From Spirochaetia bacterium (GTDB lineage Bacteria > Spirochaetota > Spirochaetia > SZUA-6 > Bin103), in contig OZ241863.1 in NCBI GenBank assembly GCA_965203055.1, positions 2,560,001 through 2,624,000 on the forward strand: a stretch of 64,000 nt of DNA. The letters run 5' to 3'. Positions 3,901-51,865 of this stretch are shown here, piece by piece. A program made the translations under genes and the position numbers. Below the pieces are notes generated by a model that did not search any database, was not told where the DNA came from, and worked only from the letters and a program-made list of their open reading frames with translations. Position 1 is the stretch's first letter. Each line of letters begins with the position of its first letter.

Positions 3901-4253
3901 GATGATGCGAGAAGGAAACGAGACCAGAAAACGCAGGAGCAACTCAGCTATCGATACGCCATGAACGACTGGCCGAGGGGTGATGGGCGTCGCGAATGGG
4001 CGCAGACGCTTGAGCAGGCGCACGGCTCGATAGCATTGGCGTCTGGCAACGAGAAGGCAGAAGACCTCGAGAACGCCAGCCCATCTTCGACACGCCGATT
4101 GCGGCGGCATGGTGTTGCTTCGCATCTAGGCCGACCGACCGGACCGCCTTCATGGTCAAACGCATCCGTGCACATGACCCAGAGTGGTTTGACGTGGCGT
4201 ATGAGGCCGCTTGGTTTCAACTCGCACTCATGCAGGATGAGGGACGGATATAG
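943..4253 (+). pseudogene. druH: Druantia type III DruH-like (STY4851/ECs_5259 family) protein, frameshifted near the 3' end
   Basis: TTG at 943 follows a GGAGGAG SD. N-terminal motifs DGRPLYSYRC, FVIYAAEWWQRHY and QGGLP are present. The plausible C-terminus (PIFDTPIAAA...KRIRAHDPEWFDVAY) is in the -1 frame and ends at TAG 4251-4253, 2 nt before the helicase ATG. About 1100 aa if corrected. Confidence 0.75.
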
Positions 4254-4255
4254 GA

Positions 4256-28001: not shown

Positions 28002-28132
28002 TTGACAGCCTCCGATATGGTGGTGTGGTACTGCGTTGCCAGCTTGGCAGGGCTCGGCGAGCAAGTCAAATCGGCGTGCCCTCCCCCTGGGATGATCTCG
28101 CGTTAGGGGCGGCGGCCGGGTACACTGGCCTC

Positions 28133-31100: not shown

Positions 31101-31441
31101 TCGAAGAGCGCGCCGGGAGCGCCGCCGCGAGCGCTGTGGAGGGTTTGCGCCGGCGTGGAGAGAGCGAAGCGCGGCAGCTCCGCGAGACCCTGGAACGCCA
31201 GCGCCGGCGGGTGCGGGCGGAGCTCGACCGGCACGACGCGGAGGCGGCGCAGCTCACCATTGAGTTCAGCGACGAGGAGCAGCGCCAGCGCCGGGCCGAC
31301 GTCGCCGCCTGGCGCCGCCGCCTCACGCAGTTCGACCGCGACCTGGAAACCGAACCGGCTCGCATCCGCGACTTCTACGAAGTGCGCGCGCAACGGGTCG
31401 AACCGGTGGGTCTGGTCTACCTGTGGCCGGACACCGGCTGA
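28133..31441 (+). CDS. drmD: DISARM SNF2-like helicase DrmD
   Basis: [49 protein letters not shown] and C-terminal [10 protein letters not shown]. First gene of the DISARM order. Confidence 0.92.
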
Positions 31442-31448
31442 CGGACAG

Positions 31449-32738: not shown

Positions 32739-32848
32739 TGTGCGCTATCGTAGACGCCAACGTGGCACATCAGGTATTACGGACGCACATAGACAACTCC
32801 TTGCCGCACGCAATCTCTGTCGCGCACCACGGACTTGACGATGTCTGA
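32738..32848 (+). pseudogene. truncated PIN-domain partner gene remnant
   Basis: TGATG-coupled MCAIVDANVAHQV... matches the start of the intact PIN at 34259 (MCAIVDASAVFEV). It diverges after about 13 aa and stops at 36 aa. Confidence 0.7.
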
Positions 32849-32924
32849 CACCGGATCCGAACGCATGCTACCTCGCCGTTATAGGAGATCCCGGACCGCG
32901 AAGGACCGATCTGATACGAGGCTG

Positions 32925-37700: not shown

Positions 37701-38683
37701 ACGACACCGACCGGAAGGGAGTCGCGTCATCGCTCGCCGACATGCAACGGCTGATCGAGGCAGACCCACGCAACGGCGAGGTGATCTACCCCTACATCGG
37801 CGGTGAAGAAGTAAACACCAGCCCGACCCACGCGCATCATCGTTACGTCATCAACCTCGGCGAGCGTAGCGAGGAGGAATGTCGCCGACGCTGGCCCGAT
37901 TTGCTAGCGATCTTGGAGGAGCGGGTAAAGCCGGCCCGTTGGTTATCCACGAAACGAAGCAAATCAGGCCACGGACATCGCGCTGCCGTGTGGTGGCAGT
38001 TCATGCACCACGCCAAGGACCTCTATTCTGCCATCGCAGGTATGGAGCGAGTGCTGGTGGTCTCCCGTGTCGGCCAACACGCGGCATTCACGTTCCTGCC
38101 GAACCAAGTAGTGTACGCAGAATCAACGATCGCTTTCCCGTTGGCGAACAAGGCTGCATTCTGTACGTTGCAGTCCCGTCCCCACGAAATCTGGGCGCGC
38201 TTCTTCGGATCGTCGATGAAGGACGACCTCCGCTACAACCCTTCCGACTGCTTCGAGACCTTCCCCTTTCCCGACGGCTGGGAATGCCATCCCGCCCTCG
38301 AAGCCGCCGGCCAAGCGTACTACGAATACCGCGCCGCGCTCATGGTGGACAACGACGAGGGCATGACTAGCACCTACAACCGCTTCCACGACTTCTACGA
38401 GACCGACCCGCGCATCGCCAAGCTCCGCGAGCTACACGCCGCCATGGACCGCGCAGTGCTCGACACCTACGGCTGGACCGATATTCCTACCGATTGCGAC
38501 CTCCTCCTCGACTACGCAATCGACGAGGCCGCCTGGGGCCGCAAGAAGAAGCCGTACCGCTGGCGCTGGCCCGACGAAGTCCGCGACGAAGTGCTCGCCC
38601 GCCTCCTCGCCCTCAACGCCGACCGCGCCGCCGCCGAAGCCCGCGCCGGTACCACAGCCGGCGTTCCGGTACCCGGTAGGTAG
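34736..38683 (+). CDS. drmMI: DISARM adenine DNA methyltransferase DrmMI (large Eco57I/type IIL-like MTase with TRD)
   Basis: GSHYTP, ICDPAMGSGAF (motif I), VGNPPF (motif IV) and a C-terminal CFETFPFP region. It lies between drmD and drmA. Confidence 0.9.
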   Translation: MPAADPNTRAHLEWLGYIQPHGLVVSPPALLKAGAFVNRQDTHRQALLAGCAEERELAPDRQPTAYIRDFREFAAAVLGWGFSPRGYAGFTEESPIPEELTLPLPDYGETLRPDFAVRERDPGNGESPWQLLVQVLAAGQEFDRPAPGPGGLDASAQGRAERLLRATGVRAGVLVNGVALRLISAPHGESSGWIDFRFADLLTTAGRPLCSALHLLLGEQRLLALPRHERLTAVLADSRLYQNEVSERLAEQVLHALYELVRGFQNAHAATDGALLSEPLAAGGDRNAIYRGLLTVILRLVFLLYAEERGLLPKDETFARHYLLGGLYRRLRKDAAAYPDTMDQRYGAWAQLVVLFRLLHDGIPAGGGGAVSLPERRGALFDPDRYRFLEGRRGGGSRQRNARLEPPRVSDGVVYRVLEKLLVLDGERLSYRTLDVEQIGSVYETIMGFRLETATGRSLAVKPAKKLGAPTTIDLDALLAQPAGRRGRWLQERADRPVSAAVAKGLRAARTVNDLHAALDRVLDHAATPDLVPRGGLVLQPNEERRRSGSHYTPRELTEPIVRHTLAPLLERLRAADGRAPAPEQVLELKICDPAMGSGAFLVETCRQLADALIEAWGAHGATPDIPPDEAEVTFARRLVAQKCLYGIDRNPMAVDLAKVSLWLSTLARDHPFTFVDHAFRRGDSLLGLTRRQLEALHWQGGQPILAGFGVGEAMEQAAALRRRIREADDTVTDRQLRTLWRGARDVLTEVRRFGDLTLAAFFEGSKPKERAARREAYQEAILTRQARRYAAELKARRYTQEKPFAPFHWEIEFPEVFERENPGFDGFVGNPPFAGHVITAESNLSHYTDWLRTQHPGSAGKCDVVAHFYRRAFDLLRNGGALGLIATNTIAQGDTRSSGLRWICEHGGHIYRATKRIKWPGDAAVVVSVVHIEKGKSSGRRMLDGTPVNRITAFLFHRGGHADPVRLAANSGKSFVGSYILGMGFTFDDTDRKGVASSLADMQRLIEADPRNGEVIYPYIGGEEVNTSPTHAHHRYVINLGERSEEECRRRWPDLLAILEERVKPARWLSTKRSKSGHGHRAAVWWQFMHHAKDLYSAIAGMERVLVVSRVGQHAAFTFLPNQVVYAESTIAFPLANKAAFCTLQSRPHEIWARFFGSSMKDDLRYNPSDCFETFPFPDGWECHPALEAAGQAYYEYRAALMVDNDEGMTSTYNRFHDFYETDPRIAKLRELHAAMDRAVLDTYGWTDIPTDCDLLLDYAIDEAAWGRKKKPYRWRWPDEVRDEVLARLLALNADRAAAEARAGTTAGVPVPGR

Positions 38684-38733: not shown

Positions 38734-39156
38734 ATGGAGCGGCAACTCAAACACCTCGAGTTCGTCCAGGGCGTAGTAAGCCGTCTGGCCGCCAACTCGT
38801 TCCGCATAAAGGGATGGAGCGTGGTACTGGTCTCCGCTCTGTTCGTCCTGGCAGCACGAGAGGGCCGGATCGCGTTCTCCTTCATCGCCCTGGTCCCTCT
38901 CGCCTTCCTCTGGTGGCTGGACGGCTACTTCCTCTGGCAGGAGCGTCTGTTCCGAGCGCTGTATGACCACGTGCGAAGTCTGGACGAATCCAAGATAGAC
39001 TTTTCGATGAACGTTGCTCCGTTCATGGGCAATCGTCCTCGAACATGGCGGAGCGCGATATTCTCGAAGACATTGGTCATATTCTATGTCGCGTTGAGTA
39101 CCACCGTCTTCCTTGCCGTCGCGATATACCTGATCTTCAATGGAGGGCCGTCGTGA
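38734..39156 (+). CDS. small multi-pass membrane protein paired with a TIR gene
   Basis: KHLEFVQGVVSRLAANSFRIKGW followed by about 3 hydrophobic segments. The stop overlaps the TIR start (GTGA). Confidence 0.8.
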   Translation: MERQLKHLEFVQGVVSRLAANSFRIKGWSVVLVSALFVLAAREGRIAFSFIALVPLAFLWWLDGYFLWQERLFRALYDHVRSLDESKIDFSMNVAPFMGNRPRTWRSAIFSKTLVIFYVALSTTVFLAVAIYLIFNGGPS

Positions 39157-39650
39157 AACGCAGAGTGTTCTTCAGCTTCCACTACGAACCTGACGCATGG
39201 CGGGTATCGCAGATTCGCAGCATCGGGGCACTTGAAAGAAATAGGCCGGTTACCGACAACGACTGGGAGCAAATAAAGCGAGGCGGCGCTGACGCGATCA
39301 AACGATGGATCGCGGGGCAGATGAAGTACCGTTCCTGTACGGTCGTGCTGGTAGGATCGAACACCGCCAACCGAAAGTGGATCAACTATGAGATCGTCAA
39401 GTCATGGAATGACGGTATGGGAGTCGTGGGGATACATATTCACGGATTGGAAGACCAGAACGGTAGCACGTCATCCAAAGGAAAAAATCCATTCGATTTC
39501 ATTTCTGACGGAAATGGCGTATTGCTTTCTTCGATAGTAAAATGTTATAATCCAAGCGGCTTCAATGGCACGCAGCGCTACGCCTGGATTTCCCAAGACC
39601 TTGCAAATGCCGTAGATGAAGCTATTTGTATCAGAAACAATTATCACTGA
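39153..39650 (+). CDS. Thoeris ThsB-like TIR-domain protein (MTH538/DUF1863-like)
   Basis: KRRVFFSFHY..DAWR, SCTVVLVG, RKWINYEI (catalytic Glu) and GKNPF. Confidence 0.88.
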   Translation: MKRRVFFSFHYEPDAWRVSQIRSIGALERNRPVTDNDWEQIKRGGADAIKRWIAGQMKYRSCTVVLVGSNTANRKWINYEIVKSWNDGMGVVGIHIHGLEDQNGSTSSKGKNPFDFISDGNGVLLSSIVKCYNPSGFNGTQRYAWISQDLANAVDEAICIRNNYH

Positions 39651-39682
39651 TACCAACAACTCAACGCTACACGAATCGTCTG

Positions 39683-40870
39683 ATGATCACTCGGGTACGC
39701 CTGCGAAACTACAGGAGCATCGCCGCCTGCTCCGTCGCACTGAAGCCGCTGACGATTCTGGTCGGTCCGAACGGCGCCGGCAAGAGCAACTTCCTTGACG
39801 GGTTGCGCTTCATGGCGGAATCGCTCCGGTACTCTCTGGAGCATGCGCTGCGCGATCGTGGCGGAATCGACGAAGTGCGGCGGCGATCGGATGACCGTGC
39901 GGACAGCTTCGCGATTCGCATCGACGTGCGACTTGCGGACGCGGCGGGCTGGTACGGGTTCGAGATCGGCGCAACCGGGAAGGGAGGTTACGTCGTGCGG
40001 CGCGAGGAATGCGTCGTCAGATCGGCCCACCCGGAACGATGCGGCTTCTTTCGGGTCCGTCACGGCGAGACCGTCGTCAGCTCCATTCGCCATCCACCGC
40101 CGAACCCCGGAAGGGACCGCCTCTACTTGTTGCGGGCGTCTGCGTACCCCCCGTTCCGACCCGTGTACGACGCCCTGGCCGCCATGGGATTCTACCACCT
40201 GGACCCGGAGCGCATCCGCGACCTCCAGGCACGGGACTCCGGCGACCTCCTGGAGCGGTCCGGGGAGAACATTGCGAGCGTCCTCGACCGGCTTCGGTCG
40301 CACTCGCCGGCCAACGCGGCGCGCATCGACGAGTATCTGTCGGCAATCGTTCCGGGCGTGGTAGGTGTGGAGCCGCTGTCGGTCGGTCCGCGGTTGACCC
40401 TGGAGTTTCAGGAGCAGCCGCCGGGGAAAGCTCCTCGGCGCTTCCTCGCCGGCGCCATGTCGGATGGAACGCTGCACGTGTTGGGCCTGCTGGTGGCGCT
40501 GTTTCAACATGCGGATGGCGCCTCGGAGCGTCCCGGACTGGTGGGAATCGAAGAACCGGAGACCGCGCTGCACCCCGCCGCCGCAGGGGCGCTGACCGAC
40601 GTGCTGCAGGAAACGAGCGAGCGCGTGCAGGTGATCGTCACCAGCCACAGCGCGGATTTGCTGGACCGGGACGCGATCTCGGAAGATTCCATCGTGGCCG
40701 TGGACGCGGAACAAGGCGAGACCCGAATCGCGCGGCTCGACGAGACCGGCCGTACCACCTGCCGTGACGGCCTGTTCACCGCCGGCGAGTTGCTCCGTAT
40801 GGACCAACTGAGCCCGGACCCGGATGCCGCGGCGTCCGTGGACCTGGACCTCTTTCGCGACGAGGAATGA
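39683..40870 (+). CDS. ABC/SMC-like ATPase (AAA_21)
   Basis: LRNYRS, VGPNGAGKSN, MSDGT, IEEPETALHP and VTSHS motifs. Confidence 0.9.
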   Translation: MITRVRLRNYRSIAACSVALKPLTILVGPNGAGKSNFLDGLRFMAESLRYSLEHALRDRGGIDEVRRRSDDRADSFAIRIDVRLADAAGWYGFEIGATGKGGYVVRREECVVRSAHPERCGFFRVRHGETVVSSIRHPPPNPGRDRLYLLRASAYPPFRPVYDALAAMGFYHLDPERIRDLQARDSGDLLERSGENIASVLDRLRSHSPANAARIDEYLSAIVPGVVGVEPLSVGPRLTLEFQEQPPGKAPRRFLAGAMSDGTLHVLGLLVALFQHADGASERPGLVGIEEPETALHPAAAGALTDVLQETSERVQVIVTSHSADLLDRDAISEDSIVAVDAEQGETRIARLDETGRTTCRDGLFTAGELLRMDQLSPDPDAAASVDLDLFRDEE

Positions 40871-40873
40871 TCC

Positions 40874-41503
40874 TTGATCCGAATCGTGGCCATCGTCGAA
40901 GGCGATGGCGAAGTGAAGGCGGTGCCGGTGCTGCTCCGGCGGATCGGCGCGGCAGTGGCGCCGCTCGCGGCGCTCGACGTAGCGCGGCCGATCCGCGTGT
41001 CGCGCGGGCGATTTCTCAAAGGGAGCGGCCTGGAACGCTACGTGAGCTTGGCTGCGAGTCGCGCAGGGCCGGGCGGTCGCATTCTGGTGCTGCTCGACGC
41101 GAACGGCGATTGCCCGGCGGAACTCGGCGCCGCCCTGCTGCGGCGCGCCCGCGCCACGCGGCCGGACCTGCTCATCGAGGTGGTGCTGGCCAAGTGCGAA
41201 TACGAGGCGTGGTTCATCGCGGCGGCTGATTCCCTGCGCGGCACACGCGGCATATCGAATGCCGCCAACGTACCGCCTGACCCGGAATCGATCCGCGGCG
41301 CCAAGGAGTGGCTCCGCGCCCGGATGAGCGGCCCCTACAGCCCCACCGCCGACCAAGCCGCGCTCACCGCCCGGTTCGACATGACGGCGGCCCGCCGCCG
41401 CGCGCCGTCGTTCGACAAGATGTGGCGCGCCGTCGGCGTCCTGATGCTCTCCGCCCGGTCGCAGGAGGATCAGCCAGGCTGCCGGCCACCTACCGTCCGG
41501 TAG
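40874..41503 (+). CDS. DUF4276 (TOPRIM-like) protein
   Basis: IVEGDGE, VLLDA and EYEAWF motifs; usual partner of AAA_21 ATPases. Confidence 0.8.
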   Translation: MIRIVAIVEGDGEVKAVPVLLRRIGAAVAPLAALDVARPIRVSRGRFLKGSGLERYVSLAASRAGPGGRILVLLDANGDCPAELGAALLRRARATRPDLLIEVVLAKCEYEAWFIAAADSLRGTRGISNAANVPPDPESIRGAKEWLRARMSGPYSPTADQAALTARFDMTAARRRAPSFDKMWRAVGVLMLSARSQEDQPGCRPPTVR

Positions 41504-41599
41504 TGCAATTCCAGGCATGCAGCACGGCGGCACTCCAAAACTGGACAGGCATCACCTATTCAGTTACCCTGAAAGTGGGACTACGGAACCGTGGCGGTG

Positions 41600-42994
41600 A
41601 TGCACAACGACGAACCCACGCTGACAGACGCCCTGGACAGGGGAACGCTGATTGAAGAAGTCGGGAAGGCCGTAGCTACTTGTACGCCGCCGCAGGTGTT
41701 CGGGGTTCACGGTGATTGGGGTCTAGGGAAGACGAGCTTCCTCCACCAAGTGCAGTGGCACTTAACCGGCACCTGCCCGCAGCGGTCCGACGCCGCCGCG
41801 CCGGAACAGTCCGCGCTACTACCACCGAAAGGTAAGTACCGTAAGGCGATCCGAACGATCTGGTTCGATGCGTGGCGCTATCAGCACGAGGACGTACCCG
41901 TCATCGCCCTGCTCCACGAGATGCGCGCGCAGCTGTCATACTGGCATCGTAAAGGCGGCGTAGTCATTAGAGGGGCTCTTCTTTCTTTCGAGGAAATAAC
42001 GAAGAAAATCGGCATCAAGTATTCCACGTTTCGAAAAGCCAATCGCGAGTGGAAGGCTGAACATCTCCATGTTCCATTGCCATCGTATACCATACGTAAG
42101 CACCTGCGTGAAGCTATCGATCGGTTGATACCGCGCAAGCAATCAGCCCAGGCGCCGTCTCCTCGTCTTGCAATCTTCATCGACGACATAGACCGATGCG
42201 AGCCCGACGCCGCCTTCCGCCTGTTAGAGGGTCTCAAAATATTTCTCACCCTGGAGAACTGCGTGTTCGTTCTTGGAATGAATCAGAAGGTGATTGAGAA
42301 AGCGATCGGCAGCCAGATACTCGACGAAGACTCCCCGAAAGAACGCGCCGCCGCCTACATGGACAAGCTATGTCAAAACGTGTGGCGCCTGCCTGCAGTC
42401 AGGAGACCTGATCTGTTTCTCGAAGATATGCTGGCGGATACGGTCAAATACAAGAACACTCGGAACCGCATCATAGAGGGGATCAAAGACCTTCGCTGCC
42501 TACCTCCTAACCCCCGTCGTCTCAAGGGTCTTGCAAATCTGATCGGGAGGATGTCGGTGTGGCTTCCGAGCCAACGAAATGCAGACAAAAATAGTGCGAT
42601 TCGCCAGGCACAGCTACTCATGGTTGTCGCCTATACGTATCAATTCCATCACGATCTCTACGTTCGGTGGGAAGCAGATCACACACTCTACGACAAGATA
42701 TACGATTGGTGTCGGGGAACGCTGCCGACACCTTCGGAAAGCGAAGATGACAACAACGGTGTCAAAGGTCAGACGTTGGATATCTTTACGTCGATGATTC
42801 TCCCACTACGCGATACTGGTATCGATCAGGGCGAGCCAACGCCGCAACAGAGTAGTAAGATGGAACGGACGTACCCTGATCCAGGCGATAGTCGCGTCTT
42901 CTGGATACAGCCGCTGGTTCAGCGTCTCGGCGACGAAGTGAACGCCGATCAATTCCGGCCTTACCTTTACGGACCGGATCAAGCATCGTCATGA
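41600..42994 (+). CDS. KAP family P-loop NTPase
   Basis: N-terminal NDEP...D.L.R, GVHGDWGLGKTS, WFDAWRY, FIDDIDRC and NPRRLK. Confidence 0.9.
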   Translation: MHNDEPTLTDALDRGTLIEEVGKAVATCTPPQVFGVHGDWGLGKTSFLHQVQWHLTGTCPQRSDAAAPEQSALLPPKGKYRKAIRTIWFDAWRYQHEDVPVIALLHEMRAQLSYWHRKGGVVIRGALLSFEEITKKIGIKYSTFRKANREWKAEHLHVPLPSYTIRKHLREAIDRLIPRKQSAQAPSPRLAIFIDDIDRCEPDAAFRLLEGLKIFLTLENCVFVLGMNQKVIEKAIGSQILDEDSPKERAAAYMDKLCQNVWRLPAVRRPDLFLEDMLADTVKYKNTRNRIIEGIKDLRCLPPNPRRLKGLANLIGRMSVWLPSQRNADKNSAIRQAQLLMVVAYTYQFHHDLYVRWEADHTLYDKIYDWCRGTLPTPSESEDDNNGVKGQTLDIFTSMILPLRDTGIDQGEPTPQQSSKMERTYPDPGDSRVFWIQPLVQRLGDEVNADQFRPYLYGPDQASS

Positions 42995-45612
42995 GTGCAA
43001 CCACCTCCCGAACGGTTCTAACGATGTCCGACCTGTTTGCTAACCCGGCCCTTCGATCCTATCTTTCCAACGTCCGTGACTGGCATGGATACATTCGCTT
43101 TCTCGGATTGCCCGACCGCCGCGACCATCCTGACATCATAATCGACCGCCTGTTCGTCCCGCCGCTTCTGACGGACCGGTACGTTTCTGCTGACGATGAT
43201 CCGTCCGACTGGATCGACGACGCGGAGACGCTGATGACGGTGCTGGCGGTCGACAAGCCGATGGTACTATTGGGTGATCCCGGCACTGGTAAATCGGCGC
43301 TTGTGAATTACCTGGTCTGGCTGCTTTCGCGTCCCGCCGAGAACGGATTGGTAGCTCGGATCGGATGGCGCTTGCCGGTTCCCATGATTCTCAGAGACCT
43401 TCGTCTTGAGGGCGTAACGGACTTCAACGGCCTGCTACAAGCTTTCTTGAAACATGCGATGAGTGCGCCGCTCCGCGATGATACATTTCTTCACGAAGCA
43501 CTATCGGACGGCCAAGCGTTCATTCTACTGGACGGCATCGATGAAATCGGTGACATAGAGGCACGCGAAAGCTTACGCCTAGCGGTGTTCGACGGATTTA
43601 CTCGCTACCCTCGTTGTCGTTGGCTGCTGACGTCAAGGATCGTCGACTACAGTGAAGTACCGTTTGACCGCCATAAAGGTTACAGCCGAGCTGGCAACGT
43701 CAATGCCGAAAGTGGCCCGATAACCAACCGTATGAACGACCTCTTTGTCAAGCGTTCAAGGGTGTTTTTGCCTGACGTGGAGAGGCGCTATATCGCGCCG
43801 TTCGATGATCCACGCATCAAGGCGTTCGCCCGCCGTTGGTATGACGTTCGAGAGGCGGCTGCAGTGCGAGCGGGCGAAGATGCCGCCCATCTCGTTAAAG
43901 CGGTTCATGCGGACGACGGGATTCTCCGACTAGCGCGGATTCCTCACCTGCTGACTATGATGGCCTTGATCCATCGAATCGAAGCAACATTACCGCAAGA
44001 GCGGGCGCTGCTCTACGATCGCATTGCGGAGGCATACTTGGAGTCGATAGACAAGTATCGAGGCATCTACTCCGGTGCCGCTGACTTACCGTTCAAGAAG
44101 CGTTGGCTGGCTCGTGTCGGATTTGAAATGCAGCGTCGCCGCGACGCTCGGGACGGCCCTGACCAATCGGAAATTCTTGTCGATGCCGCCGACGTTCTTG
44201 GCTGGGTGCGCGCTGAGATGGAGCGTCACCCGGTGCCTGGCGCGGATACTCCGGAGGAATTTCTTCAATTCGTGAAGCGGCGCAGCGGTCTGCTTCTGCC
44301 TCGCGGAGAAAATCGCTATGCGTTCATACACTTATCGTTTCAGGAGTACTTTGCCGCTCATGCTGTGAGGCGCGAAATCATGACCCCTAAATGGATAAAG
44401 GAGGGAGAATCCCCGCTAGGTTTTAGATCAGCTTCATTGCTCAATTGGGGGAAAAGACTTGCTTGGACCGAGACGTTCGTATTCCTTTTCGAAATGCTCT
44501 CTTCCGAAGAGGATTGGCATGACGATCTTCGAGATTGTGTTTTCGGGGATAAGTTCTCGCATTTGTGCGACATGACAGATTCGACCTTAGGGCTTAATGT
44601 TTTAGCATCTCGTTTGGCAAGACATCGACGATCTCGCTTTATCTCGTCTGAGATAGTTGATACTATAGTCAATAGAGATGATATAGAACAGATACATAAA
44701 CTGAGCTTATCGGAGTTTCAAGTATCGGACGTGTCTCCGATATCTCGTCTTACTTCACTTCAGTATCTTTCGTTGGACGGGACACAGGTATCAGACCTGA
44801 CCCCGCTTGCGGACCTTGCTTCACTTCAGCATCTTTCGTTGGACGGGACACAGGTATCAGACCTGACCCCGCTTGCGGACCTTGCTTCACTTCAGCATCT
44901 TTCGTTGGACGGGACACAGGTATCAGACCTGACCCCGCTTGCGGACCTTGCTTCACTTCAGCATCTTTCGTTGGACGGGACACAGGTATCAGACCTGAGC
45001 CCGCTTGCGGACCTTGCTTCACTTCAGCATCTTTCGTTGGACGGGACACAGGTATCAGACCTGACCCCGCTTGCGGACCTTGCTTCACTTCGGTTTCTTT
45101 TATTGGACGGGACACAGGTATCGGACCTGACCCCGCTTGCGGACCTTGCTTCACTTCGGTTTCTTTGGTTGGACGGGACACGGGTGTCAGACCTGACCCC
45201 CCTTGCACACCTTACTTCACTTCGGGATCTTTCCTTGAACAGGACACAGGTATCGGACCTTACCCTCCTTGAGCGCCTTACTTCACTTTGGTTTCTTTGG
45301 TTGGACGGGACACAGGTGTCAGACCTGACCCCCCTTGCACACCTTACTTCACTTCAGTCTCTTTCGCTTGAAAGGACACACGTTTCGGTTCTGGATCCGC
45401 TTGCTCACCTCACCTCGCTTCGACATCTTTGGCTAGATGACACGGAGGTGTCGGACTTGACGCCGCTCGTCGCACTTACGTCGCTTCAAAATATCGATAT
45501 AGAGAGGACTCGCGTGTCGGAAAGGTCAGTCAGAAGATTACATGAGGCGCTTCCAAGCTGTAACATAACGTATCAAGGGATACCGTCTGACGCACGGGCG
45601 GAGCATGAATGA
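42991..45612 (+). CDS. NACHT-domain STAND NTPase with C-terminal leucine-rich repeats (bacterial NLR-like)
   Basis: LLGDPGTGKS, LLDGIDE, LTSR, RIPHLLTM, RSGLL and FIHLSFQEYFAA, followed by about 13 22-aa LRRs. Confidence 0.9.
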   Translation: MSATTSRTVLTMSDLFANPALRSYLSNVRDWHGYIRFLGLPDRRDHPDIIIDRLFVPPLLTDRYVSADDDPSDWIDDAETLMTVLAVDKPMVLLGDPGTGKSALVNYLVWLLSRPAENGLVARIGWRLPVPMILRDLRLEGVTDFNGLLQAFLKHAMSAPLRDDTFLHEALSDGQAFILLDGIDEIGDIEARESLRLAVFDGFTRYPRCRWLLTSRIVDYSEVPFDRHKGYSRAGNVNAESGPITNRMNDLFVKRSRVFLPDVERRYIAPFDDPRIKAFARRWYDVREAAAVRAGEDAAHLVKAVHADDGILRLARIPHLLTMMALIHRIEATLPQERALLYDRIAEAYLESIDKYRGIYSGAADLPFKKRWLARVGFEMQRRRDARDGPDQSEILVDAADVLGWVRAEMERHPVPGADTPEEFLQFVKRRSGLLLPRGENRYAFIHLSFQEYFAAHAVRREIMTPKWIKEGESPLGFRSASLLNWGKRLAWTETFVFLFEMLSSEEDWHDDLRDCVFGDKFSHLCDMTDSTLGLNVLASRLARHRRSRFISSEIVDTIVNRDDIEQIHKLSLSEFQVSDVSPISRLTSLQYLSLDGTQVSDLTPLADLASLQHLSLDGTQVSDLTPLADLASLQHLSLDGTQVSDLTPLADLASLQHLSLDGTQVSDLSPLADLASLQHLSLDGTQVSDLTPLADLASLRFLLLDGTQVSDLTPLADLASLRFLWLDGTRVSDLTPLAHLTSLRDLSLNRTQVSDLTLLERLTSLWFLWLDGTQVSDLTPLAHLTSLQSLSLERTHVSVLDPLAHLTSLRHLWLDDTEVSDLTPLVALTSLQNIDIERTRVSERSVRRLHEALPSCNITYQGIPSDARAEHE
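44692..45520 (+). repeat. 66-bp tandem repeat array encoding 22-aa LRRs
   Basis: Full units start at 44758 and every 66 nt to 45418, plus a degenerate unit at 44692 and a partial one at 45484. Consensus is LxxLxLDGTQVSDLTPLAxLxS. The five units from 44758 to 45087 differ from their consensus by at most 1 nt. Confidence 0.95.
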
Positions 45613-46757
45613 GGCATCTTCCGAGCGACTGCGCGGCAGTCGGCATGCTGCAGGGCGTTGCGCCCGCTCGTAGACGGCAGCCGTTGTCTTCCGGCAATCG
45701 GCTACGTTGGCGGCCCTTCAACGAGATAACGAGATCGCAGTTTACCGCCGTCAGAGTCCGTCGCTATCGCGGCATCGATGGTCTGTTACTCGATAGTCCC
45801 GGAAGAGTCAATCTCATCGTTGGCGTGAACAACTCGGGAAAGACCTCGCTGCTCGAAGCGATCTATCTGTTGGCGCACCAGAGCGATGAGCAGGCGCTGC
45901 TCGACGTTATCCGCTGGCGCGGTCGAGTGGAAGGGGATCCCGACCCGCCTTGGTTGGTGGAGCAACTTCCTCCCGTCATCCGGCTCTCCGGGAACTTCGA
46001 CCAGATCGCGGAGGACAGTACGACCTTCAAGGCCAATGTCCTCAATGAGCCGGGTGATGACTTTGGAGAGCGGGTTGATTTCCTGGCCCAACTCGTCATC
46101 GCGTCCAACTACGGCTGGCGAGCGCAAAGTACGGACGTCGCGTTCTTTGGAGATGGTCGGCGGCGGACCAGCTTCCAGGGGCGGCATTGGTTGTGCCGCT
46201 CCGCCTTCACCAGCCCGTTCTGGTCGAACCGCCCCGACCTGCTGGCTCACTGCTACAAGGAGAGCCTGGCGGCCGGAACGAAGCAGCAGGTCATCGACTT
46301 CATCAGAGAGCACGTCGATCCGGGGCTCCATGACATCGAACTCGCGGAACGGTTCAACCGCTTCCTCGTAAGCCATAGCGACTTCTCTCGCGCACAGGAT
46401 CTTGCGTTGTTCGGGGAAGGGGTGCGCCGAGTGTTCGAGATCGGGCTGCTCTTTGCGGGCGTTCAGGGGGGCGTCCTGTTGATCGATGAGTTCGAGAACG
46501 CGATCCACACCGACCTCCTGGTACCGTTCACGCGTTTCGTTCAGCGGCTTGCCGTCGACCTCAACGTGCAAGTATTCCTGACCACTTACAGCAAGGAGAC
46601 GATCGATGCCTTGCTTCTCAACGAATACCGAACCGCCGACATCGTAGGCTATGCGGTCAGCCGTACCGGCGAGGGCGCCGAGGTAAGACGCTACGACGGC
46701 AACAAGCTGCTCCGCCTGCACGAGGCGATAGACTTCGACCTGCGAGGGATTCGTTGA
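45609..46757 (+). CDS. ABC/SMC-like ATPase (AAA_15/AAA_21)
   Basis: RRYRGI, VGVNNSGKTS, FGEGVRR and LIDEFENAIH. The H-loop reads TTYS. ATGA overlap with the NACHT gene. Confidence 0.85.
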   Translation: MRHLPSDCAAVGMLQGVAPARRRQPLSSGNRLRWRPFNEITRSQFTAVRVRRYRGIDGLLLDSPGRVNLIVGVNNSGKTSLLEAIYLLAHQSDEQALLDVIRWRGRVEGDPDPPWLVEQLPPVIRLSGNFDQIAEDSTTFKANVLNEPGDDFGERVDFLAQLVIASNYGWRAQSTDVAFFGDGRRRTSFQGRHWLCRSAFTSPFWSNRPDLLAHCYKESLAAGTKQQVIDFIREHVDPGLHDIELAERFNRFLVSHSDFSRAQDLALFGEGVRRVFEIGLLFAGVQGGVLLIDEFENAIHTDLLVPFTRFVQRLAVDLNVQVFLTTYSKETIDALLLNEYRTADIVGYAVSRTGEGAEVRRYDGNKLLRLHEAIDFDLRGIR

Positions 46758-46781
46758 AGACGGTTCTGGCCGGCGCGGCGG

Positions 46782-47585
46782 TCAGCCAGCGGCGAGGGCT
46801 GCGGTGAGGTTGGCTCGTTCCAGCAGCCGGGCGTCCGCCGGGCGCTCCAGGAACGGGCGGACGTCCTGGATGAGTCGGCCGACGTCCAGCGTCGCGAGCT
46901 GCGCCCGGAGCAGCGCCAGCCAGTCCTGCGCGCGATAGCGGCCGGCGCCTTCGGTCTGATCCAGGGCGCGCTGCAGCAGCGGCAGATTCGGCTCCACCGG
47001 CGGGCGCCGGGAGCGGTACCACACCAGATCGAACCAGTCCCGCCCCTTCCGGTAGCGGCGCGCCAGCAGCGCGTGCAACTTGCCGGCCATCAGCGACGGC
47101 AGATCGTAATGGGCCACCACGAAGGTCACGCCGCGCGTGACGATCGTACGCTCGACGGTCGCACCGGCCGGCGGCCGGGTGTCGATCTCGATCTTGATGG
47201 CGAGTTTCTGTTGCGGATGACCGGAAAGCCCCGCTTCGGCGAGCAGCGAGGCGCTGCGGACCCACGCCGCCTGCACCGGTTTGCGGTCGTGCCAGCGAAT
47301 CGTACTCTCGAATCCGGCGAAATGGAGGTCGCGCTTCAGCTTCTCCAACCAGCGGCGCGGGCGGTATCCGGCGGTCGAGGTAAGGCAGAAGTCGAGGTCT
47401 TCGGAGAAGCGCGGCAAGCCCTCCAGCAGGCGCAACGCGGTGCCGCCGACGAACGCCACCGATTGGGCCGCTTCGCTCTCGTGCAGAGACCGCAGGATGA
47501 AGACTTGCAGGTATTCGCGCAGGGCGTTGAGGCGCTGCGTGGGGTCGGAGTAGCGCAGGGCCGCGGCGAGTGCCTGCTCCTTCAC
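46782..47585 (-). CDS. abiEii: AbiEii-family nucleotidyltransferase toxin (type IV TA)
   Basis: FVGGTALR....PRFSEDLDF, KIEID, GKLHAL and KGRDWFD motifs. Confidence 0.9.
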   Translation of the reverse strand: MKEQALAAALRYSDPTQRLNALREYLQVFILRSLHESEAAQSVAFVGGTALRLLEGLPRFSEDLDFCLTSTAGYRPRRWLEKLKRDLHFAGFESTIRWHDRKPVQAAWVRSASLLAEAGLSGHPQQKLAIKIEIDTRPPAGATVERTIVTRGVTFVVAHYDLPSLMAGKLHALLARRYRKGRDWFDLVWYRSRRPPVEPNLPLLQRALDQTEGAGRYRAQDWLALLRAQLATLDVGRLIQDVRPFLERPADARLLERANLTAALAAG

Positions 47586-48223
47586 AGTTCCTCGCCTTCA
47601 TCGTCGGGCAGGTAGCAGCATTCCCGCCAGACCCGCACGGCGTGTAGAATCCTTGGCTTGGCCATGCGCCGCGCGAAGGCGTCGAGGCGGTCGAGATCGA
47701 GCAGTTCGGTCTGCTGGAACCGCATCTCGATCATGCGGTCGGCGTCCCACGCGCCGGGCGTCAGATGGAACAGGTCGAGCAGCGCCTTCTCCATCGTGGC
47801 CACCGCCGCGTCGCTGCCGGCGACGGGAACGGCGTGGTACCCGAAGAAGAAATCGCGCTTCACGTTGCGGTAGCTGAAGATGCCGAACCGGTTCTCGAAC
47901 TCGCGCGGCGTGCGCGTGGTGACGCTGGTGTAGACCGGCACGCTCTCGGGAATGACGCCGTAGAAGCTCAACGCCCACGAGCCGCTGAGATAGGAGGGCG
48001 TGAGCAGCACGTTGGCCAGCGTGGCCGGCGCCAGCGGCGCCCGCCGGTAGCGATCGGCCAACGCGTAGCGGCCCCGGCGCAGGGCGACCACCTTCCCCGC
48101 CCTGCCCCATCGGTGCAGTTGACTCACCACGCTCGCCCGCGGCTCCGCGATGAGCTGCGTCACCGTCGCCAAGTCGAACGACGGCTCCGCCCCGAGAAGC
48201 TCCACGACATCATCGAACCGCAT
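47582..48223 (-). CDS. abiEi: AbiEi-family antitoxin
   Basis: LRRGRY, PSYLS...ALSFYGVIPE, TSVT and EKALLD motifs. Overlaps the toxin start. Confidence 0.85.
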   Translation of the reverse strand: MRFDDVVELLGAEPSFDLATVTQLIAEPRASVVSQLHRWGRAGKVVALRRGRYALADRYRRAPLAPATLANVLLTPSYLSGSWALSFYGVIPESVPVYTSVTTRTPREFENRFGIFSYRNVKRDFFFGYHAVPVAGSDAAVATMEKALLDLFHLTPGAWDADRMIEMRFQQTELLDLDRLDAFARRMAKPRILHAVRVWRECCYLPDDEGEEL

Positions 48224-48351
48224 CCCCCAATCCATCCATTTACGATAATGGACAAACATGCTGATTATCGTCAACCATTCATCCGCGCCCTGCACGTGCC
48301 GGCCGGCGCAGTGTGCTATGCTTTCCGGCGCGCCCAGCAGGAGAAGTAGAC

Positions 48352-48852
48352 ATGGCCACCGAGAGCATCACCAAGAATATTCTGTTGCGTCTCAAGAACA
48401 TCGATGCCCGGCTGCCGTCGCTGATACGACGGGTGGACCGGCTTGACGACGCCGCGGCGGAGCGCCGGTTCCGCGGGCGGGCGGCGGCCTGTTTCGGGCA
48501 TCTGTTGCGACGCATCAGAGTCGTAGACAACAGCGCCCTGGCCGACCGGATCGATGATGCCATCGAGTCAGGAACGTTCGCGGAGGCCGACCGGGAGCCG
48601 CTGCTGTTGCTCGACGTCGTGGCGTGGGGACGCGACGTTCAGACGAGGGAAGAGCGGTACCTGGCTGCCGAGGTGTCCGCCGGAATAGGAGAAACCGACA
48701 TTCTGCGGGCCGCGGACCGCGCGGCGCTTCTCGAAAAGCTGACCGGCGTACCTGTCCTGCCGGTGGTGGCCGGGTATTCCATCTCCCCGCGGTTTCGGTC
48801 TATCGCCGCGGGGCGACAGGTCCGGGTGGTGATCGTCGAAGAGCCGCGATGA
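48352..48852 (+). CDS. hypothetical protein, possible degenerate PD-(D/E)XK fold
   Basis: AGGAG SD; LDVVAWG...YLAAEVS...DILRAADRA...PVVAG pattern. Confidence 0.55.
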   Translation: MATESITKNILLRLKNIDARLPSLIRRVDRLDDAAAERRFRGRAAACFGHLLRRIRVVDNSALADRIDDAIESGTFAEADREPLLLLDVVAWGRDVQTREERYLAAEVSAGIGETDILRAADRAALLEKLTGVPVLPVVAGYSISPRFRSIAAGRQVRVVIVEEPR

Positions 48853-48910
48853 TCGAGCGAGCGAGGCGCGCGGTTGAACGGGCGCCGGGGAAGGGACACA
48901 CTCATCCGGG

Positions 48911-50521
48911 ATGCGCTTCTTCAACACCGCGGGACCGATCATCGCGGAGGATCACTACCACGTGCCGCCGCTGCAGCGGCTGGACCGGGACGAGCTGCTC
49001 AAGCTGATCGACTGGAAGCGCTACTTCGTGCTGCACGCCCCCCGGCAGACCGGCAAGACGTCGGCGCTGCTGGCGCTGAATGATGAACTGAACGGCAGCG
49101 GGAAGTACCGCTGCCTGTACTGCAACGTCGAGGTCGCCCAGTCCGCGCGCGAGGACGTGGCCGCGGCGATGCGGGCGATCCTCAATACCATCGCGCGGCA
49201 GGCCCGGCTCCACCTGAACGACCCGTTCCCGGACGAGGCGCGCCGCGGCCTGCTGGAACGCGCCGGGCCTCATGACGCGCTCCGGGAGGTGCTGGCGCTG
49301 TGGGCGGCGGCCGACGCCAAGCCGTTGGTGCTGCTGCTCGACGAGATCGACGCGCTGGTGGGCGACACCCTGATCGCCGTGCTGCGGCAACTGCGCGCGG
49401 GCTACGCCGAGCGCCCGCGCCACTTCCCGCAGAGCGTGGTCCTGTGCGGCGTGCGCGACGTGCGCGACTACCGCATCCGATCTTCCAGCCGGAACGAGGT
49501 GATCGCCGGCGGCAGCCCGTTCAACGTCAAGGTCACGTCGCTGCGGCTGGACGATTTCTCGCCGGACGAGGTGCGCGCGCTGCTCCTCCAGCACACCGCC
49601 GAGACCGGGCAGCGGTGGACCGGGGAAGCCATAGAACGGGTATGGGAACTGACTCAGGGGCAGCCCTGGCTGGTAAACGCGCTGGCCTACCAGGCGTGCT
49701 TCGACGATCCGGCCGGTCGCGACGGCAGCCTGCCGGTCACCGCGGACGCGATCCGGGCCGCCGCGGAACGGCTGATCGTGCGCCGCGACACTCACCTGGA
49801 CCAGCTCGCCGACAAGCTCCGCGAGGAGCGCGTCCGCAACGTGATCGAGCCGCTGCTCAGCGGCGGCGGCGAACGCGGCTACTCCGCGGCCGACGTCGAG
49901 TACGTGCGCGACCTGGGCCTGATCGCCCGCGGCGACCCGTTGCGCATGGCCAATCCGATCTACGCCGAAGTGGTGCCGCGCGAACTGACCAGCCACGTCC
50001 AGGCGAGCGTGGTCGAGGACCCGGCGTGGTACGTGGACCCCGACGGCGGCTTGAACGTCGCGCGGCTGCTGGCCGCGTTCGGGGAGTTCTTTCGGGAACA
50101 TTCCGAGCACTGGGTGCAGCGGTTCCAGTATCGGGAAGCCGGCCCCCAGTTGCTGCTGCAGGCGTTTCTGCAGCGCATCGTGAACAGTGGCGGCCAGATC
50201 CACCGGGAGTACGGGCTGGGGCGGATGCGCACCGATCTGCTGATCGTCTGGCCGGCGGGGGCGGTGGCGGGAACGGCAGGAGCGGCGCCGGGAACGGCGC
50301 GCAGGACGGTGATCGAGTGCAAGGTGGTGACGGCGAAGCAGGGGATGGAGCGGACCGTGCGCGACGGGCTGGCGCAGACGCGCGCCTACCTTGAGCGGTG
50401 CGCGGCGGCCGAGGGCCACTTGGTGGTATTCGACCGCCGGCCCGAGCGCACCTGGGAGCAGAAGCTCTTTCGCCGTGAGGAGACGACCGGCGGCGCGCCG
50501 GTGACCGTGTGGGGAATGTAG
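48911..50521 (+). CDS. AAA-like ATPase with C-terminal PD-(D/E)XK-like domain
   Basis: MRFFNTAGP, APRQTGKTS, LLDEID and REY..GRMRTDLL...IECK. Confidence 0.85.
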   Translation: MRFFNTAGPIIAEDHYHVPPLQRLDRDELLKLIDWKRYFVLHAPRQTGKTSALLALNDELNGSGKYRCLYCNVEVAQSAREDVAAAMRAILNTIARQARLHLNDPFPDEARRGLLERAGPHDALREVLALWAAADAKPLVLLLDEIDALVGDTLIAVLRQLRAGYAERPRHFPQSVVLCGVRDVRDYRIRSSSRNEVIAGGSPFNVKVTSLRLDDFSPDEVRALLLQHTAETGQRWTGEAIERVWELTQGQPWLVNALAYQACFDDPAGRDGSLPVTADAIRAAAERLIVRRDTHLDQLADKLREERVRNVIEPLLSGGGERGYSAADVEYVRDLGLIARGDPLRMANPIYAEVVPRELTSHVQASVVEDPAWYVDPDGGLNVARLLAAFGEFFREHSEHWVQRFQYREAGPQLLLQAFLQRIVNSGGQIHREYGLGRMRTDLLIVWPAGAVAGTAGAAPGTARRTVIECKVVTAKQGMERTVRDGLAQTRAYLERCAAAEGHLVVFDRRPERTWEQKLFRREETTGGAPVTVWGM

Positions 50522-50542: not shown

Positions 50543-51865
50543 CTACGGCCGGTACTCTACCAGGGCGGAGCGGCCGGTGACGTCGACGATGCGAACCCGC
50601 CGTTCCCGGCCGGCGGCGTCTGCAAGACGCAGTTCTTCGCCCGGAATGAACGGCACCGGCTGCGGTTGGCCGTCGTTGATGGCGATGTTCGACGCCGAGA
50701 CGAAGGTGCGGGCGCGGGCGTCGCGGACGGCATGCAACGTTCCGGTCAGCCCGGGCACGGAACCGGCGGCTTCCGGGAAGATGACCGAGCCGCCGTCCGG
50801 CAAGGCGGTGAGTTCGACCGCGAGCGCGCGCCGGCACGGCGTCCACTCCTGTTCCACGTGCGCGGCGTGGCCCGCCGCGGCGGCGTATACCGTCAGCGGC
50901 AGTTCGGTGGTGTGCAGGGCCGCCGCGGCGATGCCGGCGGCGTCGGCAGTGGCCCGCTGCCAAGTGCGGTTGGGGAACAGGATCAGCAGGTCGCTGCCGG
51001 GCAGGGGGCGCCCGGCAGCGCGCACCGCGATCCGCACCTGCGCCGGACTCGGCGTCGTGGGAGCGGAGGGGAGCACGACCAGCACCTCGGCGTCGGCGAT
51101 GACGCGGAACTGCGCCGGCTTGCCGCTCACGCTCCTGGTTTCGTTCAGGATCACCGGGACGCCGTCGCCGCGCCGTTCCATGAAGTAGCGCCGCTCCCCG
51201 CTGCCCCGCGTGTCGCCGGCCGGCATTCGGCCCAGCATGGAAGCCAGCACTTCGTTGCGCGTGGCCTGCCGATCGGCGATGTTCTCGACCGTCAAGCTGT
51301 TCGGCAGCGTGCCCGGCGACTGGATTTCCAGCCGGTCCGAGAACAACGACAGGCGGATGCGGCTGCCGCGGATGGAGTACAGGTCGCGGTGCGCCACCGC
51401 GTTGACCACGGCCTCGAAGATGGCGCGCTCGCTGTATTGGGGCAGATCGATGCGCGCCGGGTCATTGTGCGCCGCCACCTGCATGTTGCGCACGGCGAAG
51501 GCCACGGCGTCGGCGATCTGGCGGTTCAGCGGCCCGCCGATGGTCTGCGCGTCGACCTGCCCGGACGCGCGGTCGGCGCCGCGGTAGCGGGTAGCGGTGA
51601 TGCAGGCGTTGGGGAGCCACTGCTCCGGGGCGCGGCTGCACAACAGGATGCCGGCCACGGTCGCCCGCCGCGGGCCGTCCGCGGTGTCGGTCAACAGCCC
51701 CAACTTGGCGAGGGCGAGGTCGGGAGCGGCAGCGCCCTGAGCGCTCACCAGCGGTTTCCACAGCGCCTCATCCAGCGACCCGAAGCCGGTTTCCGGAACC
51801 GGCTGCTCGTCGAACCACAGGCCCAACCGCAACCGGCGCCGGATCACCTCTTCGCTCAACTCCAC
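50543..51865 (-). pseudogene. Schlafen/AlbA_2-HATPase_c_4 family protein apparently lacking its AlbA_2 domain
   Basis: EAVVNAVAHRD, EIQSPGTL, RNEVL and MERRGDGV (HATPase_c_4-like). The N-terminus jumps from RRRLRLG straight to LWFDEQPV. Confidence 0.6.

Follow-up and report, generated by a model that had tools for sequence, protein, structure and literature searches.

Bacterial NACHT proteins take part in anti-phage defence and can bear leucine-rich repeats (LRRs), as in the case of bNACHT16 (Kibby et al., 10.1101/2022.07.19.500537). In fungal NOD-like receptors (NLRs) the WD40, ANK and TPR repeats share over 85% identity, vary in number and show positive selection at surface positions, and no LRRs were found there (Dyrka et al. 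2014, PMC4986451). Bacterial NLR-like proteins with WD and TPR repeats that are 80-90% identical have been proposed to diversify rapidly; they were placed in filamentous Actinobacteria and Cyanobacteria, with the statement that LRRs are absent from prokaryotic NLRs (Dyrka et al. 2020, 10.1101/2020.01.06.895854). The window analysed here, i.e. a stretch of 64,000 nucleotides from a Spirochaetia bacterium (contig OZ241863.1, positions 2,560,001 to 2,624,000), contains a NACHT-LRR gene, P0001, whose 3' part is an array of 66-bp LRR units, and, overlapping it upstream, a gene for a KAP-family NTPase. It seems fairly probable that this array is the sensor of a cytosolic, effector-less NLR, the specificity of which is retuned by turnover of units and by substitutions on the concave face, and that the NLR is, together with its KAP partner, cargo of a DISARM system.

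With the bNACHT proteins, and bNACHT16 in particular, P0001 shares a central NACHT, a C-terminal repeat sensor of the 'antigen-receptor-type' (which includes LRRs), a location in a defence island and the histidine of the winged helix, bNACHT16 being likened here by its description. It differs from them in having no match in PADLOC and an obligate-looking KAP neighbour, and in lacking the N-terminal effector or adaptor of the tripartite bNACHT plan (effector/adaptor, NACHT and sensor). The combination of a NACHT with near-identical tandem sensor units, allelic polymorphism in repeat number, and the limitation of variable sites to a few unit positions on the predicted binding surface are shared with fungal HET-E, HET-D and the NWD family. 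The fungal proteins, however, have WD40, ANK or TPR units and N-terminal effectors such as HET, whereas the unit here is a 22-aa LRR, and positive selection has been demonstrated for them but is only suggested for the window array. In the LRRs of plant NLRs, the residues of xxLxLxx are hypervariable. Diversity at exposed beta-strand residues and shuffling of whole LRR units are found in both plant NLRs and the LRR-ROCO proteins of brown algae (PMC3341825), but these receptors are eukaryotic and mostly NB-ARC or ROC proteins, in which exons or paralogues are exchanged rather than the units of a 66-bp tandem array. Unlike the proteins of Dyrka et al. 2020, the present family is NACHT-LRR, and its named relative comes from a Spirochaetia metagenome-assembled genome (MAG). 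In the literature searched, no paper was found that describes a bacterial NACHT protein with an LRR array of high internal conservation, or a module consisting of KAP and NACHT-LRR.

The LRR array

The array and the parts adjoining it are as follows.

44692..45549, + strand: LRR array, 13 units of 66 bp (22 aa), LxxLxLxxTxVSDLxPLxxLxS (in-frame cut, AlphaFold2 solenoid, Foldseek)
44758..45153, + strand: units 2-7, a core of high conservation (0-2 nt differences among units 2-6, 5-7 nt between these and unit 7)
45550..45612, + strand: C-terminal cap or tail (LPSCNITYQG...) and stop codon, with a 4-bp overlap with the start of the next gene (translation; tail conserved in close relatives)

Tandem Repeats Finder returned a single tandem array in 40000-50000, at 44749-45380, with a period of 66, 9.6 copies, 90% matches, 0% indels and a score of 935. 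For the comparison of units, the array was cut in the frame of the open reading frame (ORF) 42991-45612 from 44692 onwards. A preliminary description of this stretch, made from its sequence alone, had let the array run from 44692 to 45520; the start is indeed the first codon of unit 1, while the end lies inside the degenerate last unit (45484-45549). The same description reported five near-identical consecutive units, three of them identical and two with one substitution, and unit-wise comparison of the DNA agrees: units 3, 4 and 6 show 0 differences over 66 nt, unit 2 departs from them by 1 nt (TAT/CAT, i.e. Tyr/His, at position 3), and unit 5 likewise by 1 nt (ACC/AGC, i.e. Thr/Ser, at position 15).

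The units that follow are more divergent, as had also been stated, and become so stepwise, with 5-7 nt differences from the core in unit 7, 9-11 in unit 8, 13-14 in unit 9, 9-11 in unit 10, 19-21 in unit 11, 22-23 in unit 12 and 36-39 in unit 13. For unit 1 the difference from the core amounts to 30-31 nt; unit 1 and units 12-13 are the divergent ends of the array. Units 8 and 10 are only 2 nt apart despite the presence of unit 9 between them. The residues that had been read at the variable positions (QY-S-DG, QH-S-DG four times, RF-L-DG, RF-W-DG, RD-S-NR, WF-W-DG, QS-S-ER, RH-W-DD and QN-D-ER) match the translation exactly, and the VSDLTPL scaffold is largely kept, being exact in 8/11 of units 2-12.

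The longest perfectly periodic span (base i equal to base i+66) is 44765-44998, i.e. 234 bp, which is far above chance. Over five consecutive units (110 aa) every pair is identical at no fewer than 19/22 positions, which brings the array into the high-conservation class as defined by Dyrka et al. 2014 (repeats with >85% mutual identity across 100 residues or more).

Turnover of units among relatives

P0004 and the other relatives compared here are proteins from metagenome assemblies. The in-frame gain or loss of repeats that had been supposed for this array is seen in P0004 (851 aa, compared to 873 aa for P0001), which is identical to P0001 outside the array and inside it has one 22-aa unit fewer, besides 2 substitutions. 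Among the 21 closest proteins (pairs with a pre-array part of <480 aa were dropped), 11 pairs reach 93% identity or more in the part that precedes the array. In this part P0007 and P0008 are 100% identical, and they have 8/10 units in common, while P0007 and P0014 (97.3% ahead of the array) have only 6/10 units in common, one unit being duplicated in one protein and missing in the other; the difference between P0006 and P0013 consists of two missing units. All of these relatives retain the first unit as well as the last two and the cap, and it is the inner units that change. Fixed ends with changing inner units are the pattern expected from unequal exchange. The unit ending 'ADLAS' occurs in 6 units of P0001, 5 of P0004 and 2 of P0005 (a 95% identical relative), which dates the expansion after the split from P0005. 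Judging from these protein sequences, close alleles differ in the number and order of their units, where the copy number itself could be an assembly error.

Across 121 proteins, the number of units ranges from 0 to 16 per protein, with a mode of 10. An adjacent pair of units that is identical at 21/22 positions or more is present in 28/121, and an entirely identical adjacent pair in 17/121.

Where the substitutions fall

Positions 2, 3, 5, 7, 8 and 10 of the unit were taken as the x positions of the concave side, positions 15, 18, 19, 21 and 22 as convex x positions, and the 11 others as scaffold. Side chains 3 and 5 of the LRR strand face the concave surface. Across units 2-12, positions 2, 3, 5, 7 and 8 all vary, and the 11 scaffold positions barely do. 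The minimum numbers of nonsynonymous and synonymous changes are 15/3 for the concave x codons, 8/6 for the convex x codons and 2/11 for the scaffold codons, so that the concave codons differ from all others taken together (10/17) with p=0.0027. The ratio of nonsynonymous to synonymous differences per site (pN/pS) at positions 2, 3, 5, 7 and 8 is 1.18, compared to 0.31 for the rest, in units 2-12, and 1.99 compared to 0.47 in units 2-10, where pS is equal (0.125 and 0.126), although these figures come from non-independent unit pairs and are therefore descriptive.

The same bias is present in the family. In 785 unique within-protein unit pairs at 18-21/22 identity, with 2391 differences, the six concave-side positions account for 63.9% of the differences (254.5 each on average), the five convex x positions for 25.9% (124.0 each) and the eleven scaffold positions for 10.2%; entropy at convex positions 15, 18, 19, 21 and 22 is 1.7-2.9 bits. 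The bias of substitutions towards the predicted binding face is real, and positive diversifying selection at the concave positions is suggested.

A diversity-generating retroelement, considered as the source of the variation though not tested for systematically, seems unlikely: the codon changes extend beyond adenines (e.g. TCG to TGG, CAG to TGG), and no reverse transcriptase was found among the 28 window ORFs scanned.

P0001 is an NLR-like protein

The gene and its motifs ahead of the array are the following.

42991..45612, + strand: NACHT-LRR (NLR-like) STAND NTPase gene, P0001, 873 aa (ORF, Pfam, Foldseek)
42991..44691, + strand: short N-terminal region (residues 1-85), then NACHT NTPase with helical and winged-helix domains (residues 1-567; AlphaFold2 secondary structure)
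43273..43296, + strand: Walker A, GDPGTGKS, residues 95-102 (motif search)
43519..43545, + strand: Walker B, FILLDGIDE, residues 177-185, NACHT-type (motif search)
44323..44349, + strand: winged-helix motif FIHLSFQEY (residue 445 on), including His447 (motif search)

In 69 aligned sequences, G95, D96, P97, G98, G100 and K101 of Walker A are invariant, as are L180, D181, G182, D184 and E185 of Walker B and S449, F450, E452 and Y453 of the winged-helix motif, in which H447 is conserved in at least 90%. We take His447 to be the counterpart of the ADP-contacting histidine of animal NLRs. The residue equivalent to NLRC4 H443 has been mutated in bNACHT16 and bNACHT25 (Kibby et al., 10.1101/2022.07.19.500537).

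The AlphaFold2 model of P0001, built from 69/121 sequences, has a mean pLDDT (the predicted local confidence) of 79.6, which rises above 90 through the solenoid, and has one short beta-strand per LRR unit, at unit positions 3-5. Aligned as a whole in Foldseek, the model matched NLRC4 (4kxf, E=2e-18), NLRP9, NLRP3 and NOD2 over 937-1072 columns (E 2e-18 to 4e-14, template modelling (TM) scores 0.23-0.38). The fold of nucleotide-binding, helical and winged-helix domains is thus like that of animal NLRs, down to the winged-helix histidine, and P0001 is an NLR-like NACHT-LRR protein, as the preliminary description had supposed.

Pfam LRR_4 matches P0001 with 141.6 bits, and the strict 22-aa period with a strand per unit places the repeats in the 22-residue SDS22/internalin class. 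Nearest in fold to the solenoid are the LRR of the Chlorobium tepidum Roco protein (39-40% identity) and then InlA (Foldseek). The internalin/SDS22 and C. tepidum Roco LRRs (6hlu, 5il7, 1o6v, 2omx) are alike in repeat length and fold, with 33-40% identity over ~290-335 columns, but differ in that the window LRR has Thr, not Asn, at position 9. InlA and InlB bind their ligands on the concave LRR face. P0001 is itself not an internalin, because the NCBIfam scores for InlH (179.3 bits, cut-off 1050) and InlA (168.8 bits, cut-off 1600) are far too low and concern the LRR part only, nor is it a Roco protein, because Pfam finds no Roc-COR domain in it. A match to NCBIfam EruA (18.8 bits) covers the P-loop only.

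No effector domain was found by Pfam or AlphaFold2 in the ~85 residues that precede the P-loop strand. The most conserved stretch of the NLR family lies in this region (42991-43245 of the window), at residues 31-48, where W31, G33, R36, F37, L38, G39, P41, D42, R43, R44, D45, P47 and D48 are all invariant in the 69 sequences. The AlphaFold2 pLDDT is below 50 at residues 34-53, i.e. the invariant motif W31-D48 is modelled as disordered; it could be a motif for docking a partner.

In a library clustered at 50% identity, the NTPase part gave 14015 matches when the limit was set to E<=0.001, and 575 clusters when it was E<=1e-30. From 150 listed representatives, 15 were picked since their match starts well inside the protein (N-terminal extensions). 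Ahead of the NACHT, 7 of these have DUF4062, 2 Metallophos, 1 HTH_31 and 5 nothing recognised; the wider clade thus uses an effector-NACHT-LRR plan, and in the subfamily of the window the fused effector is replaced by the KAP neighbour. A tblastn search of plasmids with the NTPase part returned 11 records, with distant NACHT proteins at 23-31% identity and no orthologue.

LRRs of the same type are found in other layouts as well. An MAG labelled Asaia bogorensis encodes (L005:7982-10678) a protein of 898 aa with an N-terminal TIR_2, an unassigned middle part and an LRR of 12 copies of a 66-bp unit at 90% identity, a layout similar to that of plant TIR-type NLRs (TNLs). Another locus has two tandem NACHT genes (L016:3012-6137 and L016:6005-8989), of which the first encodes a Mrr_cat nuclease-NACHT protein of 1041 aa and the second, cut by the contig end, an NNH1-NACHT-LRR with a 66-bp array of 5.7 copies that is 88% self-identical. 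Proteins without a NACHT match carry 66-bp LRR arrays of 86-95% internal identity at L020:8406-8751, L010:5343-5806 and L025:10129-11040, where the L010 protein combines pentapeptide repeats with LRR.

The KAP partner

Neither the conserved KAP partner nor the effector-less N-terminus had been remarked upon in the preliminary description. The genes that flank P0001 on either side are the following.

41591..42994, + strand: KAP-family P-loop NTPase, P0002, 467 aa, soluble (Pfam KAP_NTPase 75.5 bits, cut-off 20)
45609..46757, + strand: ABC-type ATPase, P0003, 382 aa, PDC-M38A-like (start overlaps the NLR stop by 4 bp)

The stop of the KAP gene overlaps the start of the NLR gene by 4 bp, and the two are a translationally coupled pair. 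Of 63 loci from species-representative genomes, one contains a full-length relative of the NLR (L001, from the Spirochaetia MAG), the others matching the LRR only, and in L001 a KAP that is 62% identical to that of the window lies upstream of the NLR with the same 4-bp overlap. In a protein database, 847 matches to the NTPase part were obtained among 8000 scored candidates, and 993 to the KAP. When the best 120 of each list are compared, 33/120 lie on contigs of identical size, which were taken as shared contigs (four of 4.7-5.4 kb, nineteen of at least 50 kb) and are a lower bound for the co-residence of KAP and NLR. The KAP is therefore a conserved partner gene of the NLR.

The AlphaFold2 model of the KAP (pLDDT 76) has the ring ATPase RdrA of RADAR as its nearest solved fold (E=7e-7, TM ~0.40-0.45), and a KAP P-loop fold is what it has in common with RADAR RdrA (a heptameric ring), QatA, PifA and PDC-S20. 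The ATPases of RADAR and Qat each have a second protein as their partner. The window KAP is different in that it has no deaminase, QueC or TatD partner; its partner is the NLR. PADLOC matches it to PDC-S20 (E=1e-23). Identity with QatA was rejected, the NCBIfam score being 79.6 bits with a cut-off of 600 and no QatB, QatC or QatD being present among the neighbours. The C-terminal part of the KAP (residues 271-467) matched only KAP clusters in the ESM Atlas and gave no lead to an effector.

KAP NTPases also occur fused to other domains. Distant ones are combined with TPR and NB-ARC-like, FGE-sulfatase or CHAT protease domains (P0395, P0397 and P0399), so that KAP proteins are found in NLR-like sensor and effector layouts too. 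At L004:8351-10861, L006:8390-10846 and L009:8237-10645 (Planctomycetota, Zixibacteria and Phycisphaerales MAGs), a KAP NTPase is fused directly to the 22-residue LRR in proteins of 802-836 aa, which means that both NTPase families of the window cassette can carry an LRR sensor themselves.

As for P0003, its match to PADLOC PDC-M38A (E=1.5e-95) covers only positions 356-715 of the 715-position model, and no homologue of it adjoins the NLR in L001. Its gene is transcriptionally contiguous with the pair, but a doubtful member of the module; it is either the module's third gene or PDC-M38A in a split form. A scan of 41300-47000 for promoters and terminators gave nothing above shuffled expectation.

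The defence island

The window is a large defence island, in which the following features were recognised besides the cassette.

877-7780: Druantia type III pair, DruH (E=2e-79) and DruE (1255 bits)
28025-31441: DrmD, class 1 DISARM (PADLOC)
31155-34259: two NsnB-like AAA_15/AAA_21 ATPases of 527 and 474 aa, side by side between drmD and drmMI
34736-38683: DrmMI, class 1 DISARM (PADLOC)
38734-41503: PDC-M50A beside a ThsB-like TIR protein (PDC-M50B), then HEC-01A (AAA_15/21) and HEC-01B (DUF4276)
46782-48295, - strand: AbiEii nucleotidyltransferase toxin and AbiEi antitoxin pair, directly after the cassette
48911-50521, + strand: AAA_35/AAA_16 ATPase, 536 aa, no PADLOC match, unassigned
50543-51865, - strand: HATPase_c_4 protein, weak match to pAgo-associated models, unassigned
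53430-56915: DrmA, class 1 DISARM (PADLOC)
56912-58051: second HEC-01A-like ATPase, between drmA and drmB
58041-59837: DrmB, class 1 DISARM (PADLOC)
within 59069-60613: DrmC, class 1 DISARM (PADLOC)

The DISARM system is a complete one of class 1, spread over ~32 kb (28025-60613) by cargo at several junctions. KAP and NLR match no drm gene (drmA, drmB, drmC, drmD or drmMI) and are embedded cargo of DISARM. The guanine-cytosine (GC) content of the two genes together is 0.54, compared to 0.66 for the whole window, and in both the window and L001 the cassette has a GC content of 0.54-0.56 versus 0.68 in its flanks, 0.56 being the value for L001. The gene order in L001 is DrmMI-AAA-KAP-NLR-DrmA. 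While the DISARM proteins of window and L001 are 76-81% identical, the KAP proteins are 62% and the NLRs 61% identical, and this lower identity, together with the low GC content, indicates that the pair is faster-evolving or exchanged cargo in the same slot. KAP and NLR are probably a mobile low-GC cassette between drmMI and drmA. Defence genes make up most of what is embedded in DISARM, BREX and restriction-modification systems (Payne et al. 2024 preprint). The second of the NsnB-like ATPases has a DUF3696 tail, and the ORFs from PDC-M50A to HEC-01B (38734-41503) are back to back or overlapping.

Proposed mechanism and alternatives

In the mechanism that we propose, a protein that combines a NACHT NTPase with helical domains and with 12-13 LRRs of the internalin/SDS22 type would use the solenoid as its ligand sensor. 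The central 66-bp units would be gained, lost and converted by unequal recombination between near-identical units, through which near-identical runs would be created repeatedly, and the change would always be in frame. Point substitutions on the concave face would in turn retune ligand binding by the solenoid. The ligand would most likely be a phage protein, the binding of which may release autoinhibition and allow the NACHT module to oligomerise, whereupon the signal would be passed in trans to a partner. This partner would most plausibly be the co-translated KAP NTPase, which is the best candidate for the output because the NLR itself carries no effector. Architecture, pairing, context, allele differences and positional bias are observed; what we infer is the recombination mechanism, the ligand, oligomerisation, the role of KAP, trigger and output, and also anti-phage function, the evidence for which is the setting of the gene within DISARM and the defence island.

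Several results weigh against the proposed mechanism. No experiment bears on the NLR family. No recognisable effector domain was found in NLR or KAP with Pfam and structure/library searches, and no KAP-NACHT fusion was found among longer proteins (7 distant matches, a weak test). None of the PADLOC families matched P0001 (E<=0.01) or its residues 1-567 alone (E<=1e-5). The Pfam NACHT score of P0001 (25.1 bits) is under the cut-off of 26.7, and that of the NLR of L001 is 23.0 bits; relatives do exceed the cut-off (e.g. P0291 with 42.7 and P0332 with 41.2 bits), and most protein-database matches of the NTPase part have a precomputed PF05729 annotation. Variable x positions are expected in any LRR. 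Within the array, the contrast between concave and convex x codons is not significant (p=0.13), and units 7, 8 and 10 alone show no enrichment (pN/pS of 0.45 versus 0.32). The earlier reading of the array as a diversifying sensor, varied at its exposed positions, holds as far as the concentration of differences at positions 2, 3, 5, 7 and 8 and the excess of concave changes over all other codons are concerned, while diversifying selection is no more than suggested.

Also to be counted against the mechanism is the scarcity and limited specificity of such arrays. If a conserved run is defined, similarly to Dyrka et al. 2014, as at least five consecutive units in which all pairs are identical at 19/22 positions or more, such runs occur in 9/121 close relatives and in 1/150 diverse representatives, i.e. 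they are recurrent but a minority state, and rarer (9/121) than in fungal NLRs, with 16% of annotated repeats. Arrays of 66-bp LRRs with 86-95% internal identity, moreover, are also present in non-NACHT proteins, and since these have the same LRR type, high repeat identity is not specific to the receptor of the window; it is a property of the 22-residue LRR type across several architectures, albeit in a sample that is biased because such loci were found via similarity to the query's own units. Finally, the 234-bp periodic span is too long for short reads to resolve, so the number of units may be mis-assembled.

Some of these points would equally fit neutral repeat instability, i.e. an expansion by slippage or unequal crossover that has no adaptive role, with the x variation reflecting relaxed structural constraint. 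The convex x positions do vary too, as their entropy shows, the contrast with the concave ones is not significant in the array, the conserved runs are sporadic, and similar high-identity arrays exist in unrelated LRR proteins. Such neutrality does not, however, predict the twofold difference per position between concave and convex x positions in near-identical unit pairs of the family, nor the excess at the face codons of the young units 2-10 at equal pS, and alleles with identical NTPase parts differ inside the array only; it therefore seems rather unlikely as an explanation. A different doubt is that the array is real but that assembly made too many or too few of the identical units, of which the window has 5 and P0004 has 4, which would make the allele polymorphism spurious. 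The periodic span exceeds typical short reads, P0004 and the other relatives are metagenome-assembled, and short-read assemblies of highly conserved NLR repeats are unreliable (Ament-Velasquez et al. 2025). Against this, the run is split by the private substitution of unit 5, which copying of an identical unit cannot yield, and the arrays of P0006/P0013 and P0007/P0014 consist of distinguishable units, so that collapse cannot explain their differences. An assembly artefact of this kind is possible, if doubtful.

It could further be asked whether the gene is immune at all, since its product might be a STAND/LRR protein with a housekeeping or signalling role, or else resemble internalins as a protein that is secreted or on the surface, the gene merely lying in the island: its best NCBIfam matches are internalins, its LRR is closest to that of a Roco signalling protein, and no defence model matched. 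Yet the internalin scores stay far under their cut-offs and concern the LRR alone, the N-terminal 567 residues are a NACHT module, a Roc-COR domain is absent, no hydrophobic N-terminal segment is seen in the translation (by eye), and in two genomes DISARM surrounds the gene, where embedded genes are mostly defence genes (Payne et al. preprint), all of which makes a non-immune role very improbable. Likewise, the KAP (PDC-S20/QatA-like) and the NLR might be two independent single-gene systems that act alone and travel together through dense packing of the island, as KAP-only candidates exist in PADLOC (among them the PDC-S20 model matched here) and KAP NTPases elsewhere have sensors or other domains of their own, namely LRR, FGE-sulfatase, TPR and CHAT. 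This is difficult to combine with a 4-bp overlap that the window and L001 share although the rest of their cargo is different, with the at least 33 shared contigs, some of which are too short to hold much else, with the similar divergence of KAP and NLR between window and L001, and with an NLR that is without any effector. Independent action of the two is consequently improbable. The proposed mechanism, a KAP-paired NLR whose array is its sensor, remains the explanation we prefer. On a more speculative level, KAP and effector-less NACHT-LRR might be a widespread immune module of two NTPases, made up of a shuffled-unit sensor and an RdrA-like ring ATPase as helper or executor, that travels as cargo of DISARM or other systems. 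Such a two-NTPase module, which we put forward only tentatively, would be the bacterial counterpart of the sensor/helper NLR pairs of plants, with a repeat diversification of the fungal style.

Conclusions

The observation made in the preliminary description is real and its reading largely right, and its interpretation is partly supported. The locus extends two known kinds, namely the bacterial NACHT-LRR proteins and the fungal and bacterial NLR repeats of high internal conservation. For bacterial NLR-related proteins, which protect against phage, it is still largely a question by what means the sensors follow phages as these evolve. In the present family, which comprises at least 575 clusters at 50% identity (E<=1e-30), the sensor is an LRR, i.e. 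the type of sensor that animal and plant NLRs have, which contrasts with the published statement that prokaryotic NLRs 'do not display' LRRs (10.1101/2020.01.06.895854). The conserved KAP partner raises the question of how an NLR without an effector signals. Natural alleles were found that differ only through in-frame gain or loss of units and substitutions on the predicted binding face, and P0001 and P0004 are a ready-made pair for specificity swaps. Diversification of this kind would extend the shuffling of conserved repeats from the WD40, ANK and TPR receptors of fungi to LRR receptors of bacteria.

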